From positions 968,952-1,032,951 of the forward strand of contig CAWKAA010000007.1 in NCBI GenBank assembly GCA_963847515.1: a DNA stretch of 64,000 nucleotides, in the 5' to 3' direction. Numbering within the stretch: position 1 is the stretch's first letter; every line of letters starts with the position of its first letter. The notes under the pieces are model-generated. The model was not told the DNA's origin and made no database searches. It saw nothing but the letters and a program-made list of their open reading frames with translations. The DNA comes from Terriglobia bacterium (lineage in GTDB: Bacteria; Acidobacteriota; Terriglobia; Bryobacterales; Bryobacteraceae). Of the stretch, positions 14,797 through 16,125 are shown one piece after another. The translations under genes were made by a program, and so were the position numbers.

Positions 14797-16125
14797 ATGT
14801 TCCTGCGTCCGGTGCTTGTCGGGGCATGCGCCGCGGCCGTTTCCTTCGCCGCCAGCGCTCCTTCTCAGATCACTTTTACTAAAGACGTTCTGCCCATCAT
14901 GCAGAAACGGTGCCAGAATTGCCATCGGCCGGGCGAAGTGGCGCCCATGGCGTTTCTCACGTACAACGAAGTCCGCCCGTGGGCCAAGGCGATTCGTGAA
15001 GCGGTGCTGACCAAGAAGATGCCGCCATGGTTTGCCGATCCGCATTACGGCAAATTCTCCAACGACCGTTCGCTGGCAAAGGACGAGATCGACACACTGG
15101 TCTCCTGGGTGGATGGCGGAGTACGCGAGGGCGATCCGAAGGACGCTCCGGCTCCGGTCGCATGGGTGGATGGCTGGAGCATCGGCAAGCCCGACGCCGT
15201 CTTCGAGATGCCGCACGATTTCGATGTGCCGGCCGCGGGAACCATCGAGTATCAGTACATCGTGATCCCTTCCGGCTTCACCAAAGATACCTGGGTGCAG
15301 GCAGCCGAAGCGCGCCCCGGCAACCGGAAGCTGGTGCATCACATTATCGCGTTCGTCCGCCCACCCGGATCCAAATGGCTGAGCGAAGCCAAGCCCGGAG
15401 TGCCTTTCGTTCCCGAGGCGAAGAAGGATGACGAGAAGAAAAAGAAGAAGAACGACGAGGAGCGGGACGACAGCGCAGCAAGTCCTGAACTGCTGATCGG
15501 ATTCGCACCGGGCCTGGTGCCGATGACGCTTCCTTCTTCCCAGGCGAAACTCGTCAAAGCCGGTTCTGATTTCGTGTTTCAGCTGCACTACACGGCCAGT
15601 GGCAAAGCGGGGACAGATCGCAGCCGCATCGGAGTCATCTTCGCTAAAGAGACGCCGAAGGAACGAGTCTTCACCTCGAATGCAACCAACTCGAAATTCG
15701 TGATCCCGCCGGGTGACCCGGCGTTCCGCGTGGTGTCCAGCATTACGCTTCAGCAGTCCGCGCGCCTGGTGGACCTGATGCCGCACATGCATTACCGCGG
15801 CAAGGATTTCGAGTACCGCGCCGTCTATCCGACCGGCGAAGAGCAAACGCTGCTCAGCGTGCCGAAATATGATTTCAACTGGCAGCTTTTCTACTATCTG
15901 TCAGACCCCATCGTGCTCCCCAAGGGCACGCGCATCGATTGCACCGCTCACTTCGATAACTCGCCGAACAACCGTTACAATCCCGACCCGAAGTCTGAAG
16001 TCCGCTGGGGCGACCAGACCTGGGAAGAGATGATGATCGGCTGGTTCGACGTCGCGGTGGATGCGAACAGCGATCCGGCGGATGTGTTCCGCGAGAAGAA
16101 GGAATCCACCAAAGCCGGCTTATAG
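14797..16125 (+). CDS. Secreted cytochrome c domain fused to a copper type II ascorbate-dependent monooxygenase-like (PHM/DBH-like) domain
   Basis: GGAGG SD 7 nt upstream. Signal peptide. CQNCH heme c motif (Planctomycete-type cytochrome c module). Copper-ligand pattern with PHM-like spacing: LVHHIIAF (His-His), FQLHYT, MPHMHYRG (H-x-H), WEEMMIGW (Met). Lys/Glu-rich insertion EAKKDDEKKKKKNDEERDD between ligand sets. Confidence 0.7.
   Translation: MFLRPVLVGACAAAVSFAASAPSQITFTKDVLPIMQKRCQNCHRPGEVAPMAFLTYNEVRPWAKAIREAVLTKKMPPWFADPHYGKFSNDRSLAKDEIDTLVSWVDGGVREGDPKDAPAPVAWVDGWSIGKPDAVFEMPHDFDVPAAGTIEYQYIVIPSGFTKDTWVQAAEARPGNRKLVHHIIAFVRPPGSKWLSEAKPGVPFVPEAKKDDEKKKKKNDEERDDSAASPELLIGFAPGLVPMTLPSSQAKLVKAGSDFVFQLHYTASGKAGTDRSRIGVIFAKETPKERVFTSNATNSKFVIPPGDPAFRVVSSITLQQSARLVDLMPHMHYRGKDFEYRAVYPTGEEQTLLSVPKYDFNWQLFYYLSDPIVLPKGTRIDCTAHFDNSPNNRYNPDPKSEVRWGDQTWEEMMIGWFDVAVDANSDPADVFREKKESTKAGL

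Follow-up and report, generated by a model that had tools for sequence, protein, structure and literature searches.

A Terriglobia protein that joins a c-type haem domain to a PHM/DBH-like two-copper core

Does a bacterial gene that seems to join a cytochrome to a copper monooxygenase encode an oxygenase with its own electron donor? The question is raised by a 442-amino-acid (aa) protein encoded in a 64,000-nucleotide (nt) stretch of DNA from a Terriglobia bacterium (contig CAWKAA010000007.1, positions 968,952 to 1,032,951; assembly GCA_963847515.1), referred to below as the window. An initial annotation, made from the letters alone, had described the protein as a cytochrome c fused to a core resembling those of peptidylglycine alpha-hydroxylating monooxygenase (PHM) and DBH. 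Profile comparisons, structure searches, and conservation across the family bear out this fusion, and we regard the assignment of the fold and its ligands as secure, with very little room for doubt. With moderate confidence, and by analogy, we further read the protein as a periplasmic enzyme in which a mono-haem c domain, placed ahead of the PHM/DBH-type two-copper core, would serve as the entry point for electrons into an oxygenase. The protein represents a known enzyme type in a bacterial form that is fused to haem c, and it is not peculiar to the window. The gene and the features that define its copper core are as follows:

14797 to 16125, + strand: whole gene for the haem c/PHM-like copper protein, 442 aa, stop codon included (from the open reading frame list; the start Met is invariant among homologues).
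15178 to 15651, + strand: beta-sandwich domain of CuH, the electron-transfer copper (residues ~128 to 285).
15337 to 15342, + strand: H181-H182, CuH ligands, aligned with PHM H107/H108 and DBH H262/H263 in the profile alignment.
15586 to 15588, + strand: H264 in FQLHYT, third CuH ligand, aligned with PHM H172 in the profile alignment and by hhalign.
15652 to 16071, + strand: beta-sandwich domain of CuM, the oxygen-activating copper (residues ~286 to 425; structure searches and hhalign).
15784 to 15792, + strand: H330-M-H332, CuM ligands, aligned with PHM H242-T-H244 in the profile alignment and by hhalign.
16027 to 16032, + strand: E411-M412, aligned by hhalign with PHM E313-M314, the latter being the Met ligand of CuM.

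Roughly 300 of the 442 residues form a PHM-like core, in which two consecutive beta-sandwich domains enclose an interdomain cleft. In a Foldseek search, the top 31 PDB matches were all PHM or DBH (E 7e-12 to 1e-9); sequence identity to these enzymes is only 13 to 18%. The next-best fold scored ~9 in both structure searches; in the second of them it was PNGase F, a known distant structural relative of PHM. Sequence profiles lead to the same place. When a profile built from 46 diverse family members was compared with the PDB, it recovered DBH (E 5e-7) and PHM (E 3e-5), with the family motifs vHHvivf, qvHYt, and PHmHlRG set against VHHMEVF and VHHMLLF, LEVHYH and LQVHYG, and LHTHLTG and VHTHHLG, respectively. 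Aligned by hhalign to rat PHM (a sequence that was checked against PDB chains, to which it was identical over 118 residues), the family profile gave a probability of 90.6% (E 1.3e-6). The alignment of the Met ligand comes from hhalign; the profile of the C-terminal domain alone matched nothing in the PDB. The same alignment pairs two second-sphere Gln residues with those of PHM (Q262 with Q170, and Q363 with Q272).

All six candidate copper ligands named in the initial annotation thus align with their counterparts in PHM (H107, H108, H172, H242, H244, and M314) and are kept throughout the family. In a sample of 150 representatives sharing less than 50% identity with one another, H181, H182, H264, H330, and H332 are each retained in 148, and M412 is present in all 142 representatives that cover its column; most of the exceptions are fragments with a gap at the position. 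The spacing also fits PHM and DBH, with the third CuH His ~65 to 80 residues after the HH pair and the Met ~70 to 80 residues after HxH. The motifs had been correctly seen, but their numbering, which was counted from an upstream GTG, ran 18 too high: HH199/200 becomes H181/H182, H282 becomes H264, H348/H350 becomes H330/H332, and M430 becomes M412, which lies in WEEMM (E410-E411-M412-M413). Since these residues are kept in essentially all 150 representatives and align with the copper ligands of PHM and DBH, the motif set is not a product of chance. The mature protein has three Cys residues, C39 and C42 at the haem and C382; with one non-haem Cys only, the conserved disulfides of PHM and DBH are absent.

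The region ahead of this core holds the haem module and the export signal, delimited as follows:

14797 to 14856, + strand: Sec-type signal peptide, residues 1 to ~20, MFLRPVLVGACAAAVSFAAS (basic n-region, hydrophobic core, and small residues at the end).
14866 to 15150, + strand: mono-haem c-type cytochrome domain, residues ~24 to 118.
14911 to 14925, + strand: haem attachment motif C39-Q-N-C42-H43 (conserved in the representatives).
15019 to 15030, + strand: M75-P-P-W, whose Met is the candidate distal ligand of the haem (conserved; the ligand role is presumed).

Both haem motifs that had been proposed, CQNCH and the later MPP, are present, as C39QNCH43 and M75PP. Among the 150 representatives, C39 is kept in 139, and C42 and H43 are kept in 140, the other 10 being gapped there; one representative that covers the position has R at C39. 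The CxxCH motif is invariant in three of our alignments (A1, A2, and A6). Farther along, M75 and P76 are kept in 145 representatives, and P77 and W78 are kept in 143. The module has a cytochrome c fold and the features of a class I mono-haem c-type cytochrome, namely, CxxCH, a downstream Met as the candidate sixth ligand, and an N-terminal signal peptide; its nearest solved fold is PccH of Geobacter sulfurreducens (PDB 4rlr). Its supposed Planctomycete (PSCyt1) character was not borne out: the isolated haem domain did not match Pfam PSCyt1 (PF07635) even at E≤10, and PSCyt1 was not among the top families over 75 family representatives. That the haem motif is so strictly conserved together with the two copper sites argues that the domains work together.

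The signal peptide appears as an isolated helix in both structure models. Because it is combined with a covalent-haem motif, which requires periplasmic cytochrome c maturation, we infer that the protein is exported by Sec and is periplasmic. A lipoprotein was considered and rejected, since Cys11 varies among homologues and comes too soon in the sequence.

In PHM and DBH, electrons pass from ascorbate to CuH and from there to CuM. By analogy, the haem of the window protein would receive electrons one at a time from redox carriers of the periplasm that connect with the respiratory chain and would pass them to CuH (H181, H182, and H264) and on to CuM (H330, H332, and M412). As happens in PHM and DBH, O2 would then bind at reduced CuM, and the substrate, lodged in the interdomain cleft, would be hydroxylated at one of its C-H bonds; the fused haem would stand in place of ascorbate. 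Replacement of ascorbate by haem is plausible, and the loading of haem and copper, the electron route, and the oxygenase chemistry are all elements that we infer. There is a bacterial precedent in the c-type cytochrome domains that reduce the copper of LPMOs (PMC8981238).

The protein belongs to a very large family. A profile search against 1.84 billion cluster representatives (clusters at 50% identity) returned 20,744 proteins at E≤1e-3 and 5,018 at E≤1e-30, and the closest relatives (52 to 100% identity) come from Acidobacteriota (Terriglobia, Bryobacterales, and Blastocatellia). The family is abundant in soil and aquatic bacteria, often with several copies per genome. An additional N-terminal AhpC/TSA-Redoxin domain is found in 32 of the 75 representatives (~43%; for example, P0138, P0146, P0155, and P0160). 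This domain, of ~200 aa, is without CxxC; of its two conserved Cys residues, one lies in GTECP and the other, ~150 residues on, in a GC motif. The resulting long form (~580 aa) is common in cultivated Planctomycetota, including Stieleria, Rhodopirellula, Roseimaritima, and Symmachiella (proteins P0371 to P0450), where precomputed Pfam annotation recognizes the redoxin and haem-binding parts only and where public names include "redoxin domain-containing protein," "thiol-disulfide isomerase," "ResA," and "peroxiredoxin." The window protein is a short form without this domain (no Pfam match to Redoxin, AhpC-TSA, or Thioredoxin). Close short relatives are nonetheless named "thiol-disulfide isomerase" and "cytochrome c," other members being "hypothetical"; judging by domain content, the former name is an annotation transfer error on short Acidobacterial members, since it is carried by their redoxin-bearing long relatives. 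Further domains occurring in other members are CBM48, lipocalin-like, ankyrin, EF-hand, TPR, and BlaR1-type membrane peptidase. A search with the family profile found no solved structure of any member in the PDB, and our literature search turned up no publication on PHM-like enzymes of bacteria with a fused haem; the PHM-type enzymes named in a 2025 review are limited to PHM, DBM, TBM, and the BURP cyclases (PMC12164859). The architecture is therefore not rare, and the window protein is an ordinary member of a very large, misannotated, and apparently uncharacterized family.

We scanned the loci of relatives, starting from alignment A1 and thus sampling mainly Acidobacteriota. In 23 of 78 loci, two to three full-length paralogues lie in tandem on one strand (for example, L014 4622 to 9217, L017 5944 to 10653, L028 4565 to 9238, and L044 6007 to 10716). 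These arrays usually end in a "mini" gene of 205 to 260 aa that encodes a signal peptide and a homologous cytochrome c module (CxxCH...RRMPPW), the remaining ~90 aa forming a short beta region that weakly resembles part of the CuM domain and lacks HxH and the Met; this small cytochrome may serve as a dedicated partner that donates electrons. A protein with a heavy-metal-binding domain (HMBD; Pfam E 2e-9) adjoins family members in 11 of 80 loci, as at L037 7908 to 8762 (- strand), L046 7907 to 9475 (- strand), and L025 39 to 902 (+ strand), and this may connect the family with copper supply. In 7 loci, there is also a separate double-redoxin gene in the vicinity of a relative.

Several observations weigh against the reading of the protein as a haem-fed oxygenase. 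Taken as a single sequence, it scores below the gathering thresholds of the Pfam models for both halves, with Cu2_monoox_C at E 0.025 (14.5 bits versus a cut-off of 23) and Cytochrome_CBB3 at E 0.009; it matches neither Cu2_monooxygen nor any NCBIfam model, and against PDB sequences it finds nothing meaningful. The link to PHM therefore rests on profiles and structure. Of the model searches that had been suggested as a check, the one with Cu2_monoox_C succeeds in relatives (E≤0.01 in 42 of 75 representatives, with a best value of 4.5e-7, and scores above the gathering cut-off in P0131 [25.0] and P0123 [23.9]) but not in the window protein itself, and those with Cu2_monooxygen and PSCyt1 gave no match; all the same, the PHM fold was recovered by profiles, and the ligand His and Met residues proved to be conserved in homologues. 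In addition, the redoxin-like domain of ~43% of representatives could be a sign of chemistry on peroxide or thiols instead of O2-dependent hydroxylation. Finally, the genes that flank the protein in the window (a phosphoribosyltransferase, a dienelactone hydrolase, an aminotransferase, an amidase, and MoeA/MoaC) recur in none of the 80 related loci and are likewise absent from the locus of a 69%-identical relative, so that the neighborhood is uninformative on function and gives no pathway; a function based on the operon was rejected for the same lack of synteny.

The main rival explanation, which we consider unlikely, makes the protein a copper-dependent oxidase or peroxidase that would either use H2O2 or render O2-derived species harmless, with its haem and two coppers relaying electrons drawn from the periplasmic pool to O2, superoxide, or peroxide. 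The redoxin domain with its conserved Cys residues, the weak GSHPx matches among family representatives, and the double-redoxin genes near relatives could all be read in this way, and PHM itself reacts with H2O2. The window protein, however, is without the redoxin domain and retains the cleft-forming two-domain core, along with the full set of CuH and CuM ligands and the equivalents of Q170 and Q272, which together are a hydroxylase signature; we know of no oxidase or peroxidase with a PHM fold. Another proposal, that the PHM scaffold has been retained in a noncatalytic protein that binds copper or transfers electrons, as in periplasmic copper handling or buffering, draws on the HMBD proteins that adjoin relatives. 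We find this improbable: both copper sites, the Met typical of CuM, and the second-sphere Gln residues are strictly kept, as would be expected of an enzyme, and the extensive paralogy and accessory domains (CBM48, lipocalin-like, and ankyrin) fit substrate diversification.

If the protein is an enzyme of the PHM/DBH kind, it could also act on the substrates of its animal counterparts, either as a true bacterial peptidylglycine alpha-hydroxylating enzyme or as a DBH-type phenylethylamine beta-hydroxylase. The shared fold and six ligands would allow this, as would the aromatic W416 at the position of PHM Y318. But in the hhalign alignment, two of the three residues with which PHM binds the substrate carboxylate are exchanged for others (R240 for M328 and N316 for I414, both replacements being conserved; Y318 is the third), identity to PHM and DBH is low, the tandem arrays of paralogues in relatives suggest many different substrates, and there is neither a PAL partner in the window nor a DOMON domain in the protein. 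We therefore judge the animal substrate class to be very unlikely; a peptide-amidating role on glycine-extended peptides, in particular, is unlikely because R240 and N316 are replaced and no PAL-like lyase is nearby. Least credible of all, and hardly worth entertaining, are the functions implied by the public names of close relatives, a thiol-disulfide isomerase/redoxin or a plain cytochrome c electron carrier. These are contradicted by the domain content: there is no thioredoxin-fold domain and no CxxC besides the haem CxxCH, the name derives from the redoxin-bearing long relatives in Planctomycetota, and the PHM-like core takes up far more of the protein than the cytochrome.

Returning to the haem-fed oxygenase, we see about an even chance that it extends to the family as a whole, in which case the more than 20,000 relatives (as 50%-identity clusters) would be an unrecognized, ascorbate-independent branch of the PHM/DBH enzymes, wired through a built-in haem c into electron transfer in the periplasm, expanded as tandem paralogues in soil Acidobacteriota and Planctomycetota, and oxidizing C-H bonds of varied extracytoplasmic substrates. 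Candidates for such substrates are components of organic matter, peptides, and envelope molecules. If this were true, the family would constitute a major new class of oxygenases in bacteria and would offer a natural single-chain system for long-range electron transfer into CuH and CuM.

The gene itself could begin at either of two codons, and one further feature bears on the choice:

14785 to 14789, + strand: ribosome-binding site GGAGG, 7 nt 5′ of the ATG (read from the sequence).

The + strand frame is open to 16125 from either GTG 14743 or ATG 14797. By sequence, the ATG is the true start rather than the GTG: it is preceded by GGAGG, the upstream dienelactone hydrolase gene ends with a stop codon at 14774 to 14776, and every homologue in the alignment starts at the Met that the ATG encodes. 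A protein on a public contig of 2.2 Mb (P0001) is 100% identical to the window protein. On the 5′ side, the + strand neighbors are the phosphoribosyltransferase (13431 to 14090) and then the dienelactone hydrolase (14111 to 14776); these two genes and the target gene are each 20 nt apart. The three are probably cotranscribed, although the grouping with the target gene is not kept in relatives. On the 3′ side lie the convergent aminotransferase and then the amidase. The MoaC and MoeA genes (11651 to 13332, - strand) overlap by 25 nt and diverge from the three-gene group; MoaC was assigned by translation alone, and MoeA was assigned by a Pfam match. The 64-kb window contains no second paralogue of the target gene.

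Within the CuH domain, the initial annotation had also remarked on a charged insertion:

15415 to 15477, + strand: Lys/Glu/Asp-rich low-complexity loop, residues 207 to 227, inside the CuH domain (models and alignment).

The charged run, EAKKDDEKKKKKNDEERDD (residues 207 to 225), is present as described but lies inside the CuH domain, between HH182 and H264, and does not separate the CuH half from the CuM half. In the profile alignment, it occupies the PHM/DBH loop that leads from the HH strand to the next strand. Its pLDDT (a per-residue model confidence score) is below 50 in both models, its length and sequence differ even among relatives of 64 to 93% identity, and its length across the family ranges from 0 to 56 residues, with a median of 13. 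From the models and alignments, we take it to be a disordered and variable surface loop without a conserved role; a functional role for the Lys/Glu insertion was rejected on account of this disorder and of the variation in length and sequence.

A second protein of the window, placed at 60027 to 62510 by the initial annotation, was said to carry the same type of cytochrome module. It is indeed a PSCyt1 cytochrome protein that is otherwise unrelated to the target, but its gene starts at 60006 (60027 being an internal Met); the protein encoded at 60006 to 62510 (+ strand) has a PSCyt1-PSCyt2-PSD1 (DUF1549/DUF1553) architecture, with PSCyt1 matched at 3e-16. The two haem modules have in common a haem-attachment stretch (F..DV.P....C..CH, with 8 of 22 residues identical) and a general layout (MPP...EI..L..W.D.G), but only the second protein matches PSCyt1. 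Its usual DUF1501 partner lies at 62453 to 63922 (+ strand), a pairing that is well known. On the opposite strand, a gene for a PQQ-like beta-propeller protein (58444 to 60018) has its start adjoining that of the PSCyt gene. By sequence, the PSCyt/DUF1501 pair is unrelated to the target protein except in the haem-attachment stretch.

Two further observations concern the related loci. Near one orthologous subgroup, FlgK- and FlgL-like genes (assigned by translation) lie ~2.6 to 5 kb upstream in 13 to 15 loci (such as L017, L019, and L055), which probably reflects synteny within the lineage and not a functional connection. Two relatives with 56 to 57% identity are on contigs of non-Acidobacterial metagenome-assembled genomes, one from Verrucomicrobiia (L021) and the other from "Candidatus Saccharimonadales" (L025); the latter assignment looks like a binning error because c-type cytochromes are not expected from genomes so reduced.

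In animals, PHM/DBH-type cores make amidated hormones and noradrenaline, and both the route of electrons to CuH and their passage over the ~11 Å to CuM are still under debate. A fusion with a haem donor that is visible by spectroscopy would give a single-chain system in which these electron steps could be timed. The public names of the family also mean that functional surveys of metagenomes overlook a large number of copper enzymes that probably activate O2, and their substrates, once found, could reveal new extracytoplasmic oxidation chemistry.

Among the closest known systems is PHM, the catalytic core of PAM (PDB 1sdw, 5wm0, and 1phm), with which the window protein shares all six ligands. 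It differs from PHM in having no disulfides, in the replacement of R240 and N316, and in its fused N-terminal c-haem domain, as well as in being bacterial and periplasmic, in having no PAL partner, and in relying on haem rather than ascorbate as its presumed reductant. Compared with DBH, tyramine beta-monooxygenase, and MOXD1 (PDB 4zel), it is without DOMON domains, dimerization domains, or disulfides and has a haem c domain instead. The ~580-aa proteins of Planctomycetota (Stieleria, Rhodopirellula, and Roseimaritima) are members of the same family, with an identical cytochrome c plus CuH/CuM core and all ligands, to which the extra ~200-aa AhpC/TSA-Redoxin domain is added at the N terminus. 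The reduction of LPMOs by the cytochrome domain of cellobiose dehydrogenase in fungi, or by the c-type domains of Cbp2D/Cbp2E in bacteria, follows the same logic, in that an extracytoplasmic haem feeds a copper monooxygenase (PMC8981238); however, LPMOs have an unrelated copper fold (a histidine brace with a single Cu), and the partners are separate proteins rather than one chain. PccH, whose fold is nearest to that of the haem module, is a free-standing electron carrier, whereas the module of the window protein is fused to an enzyme core.

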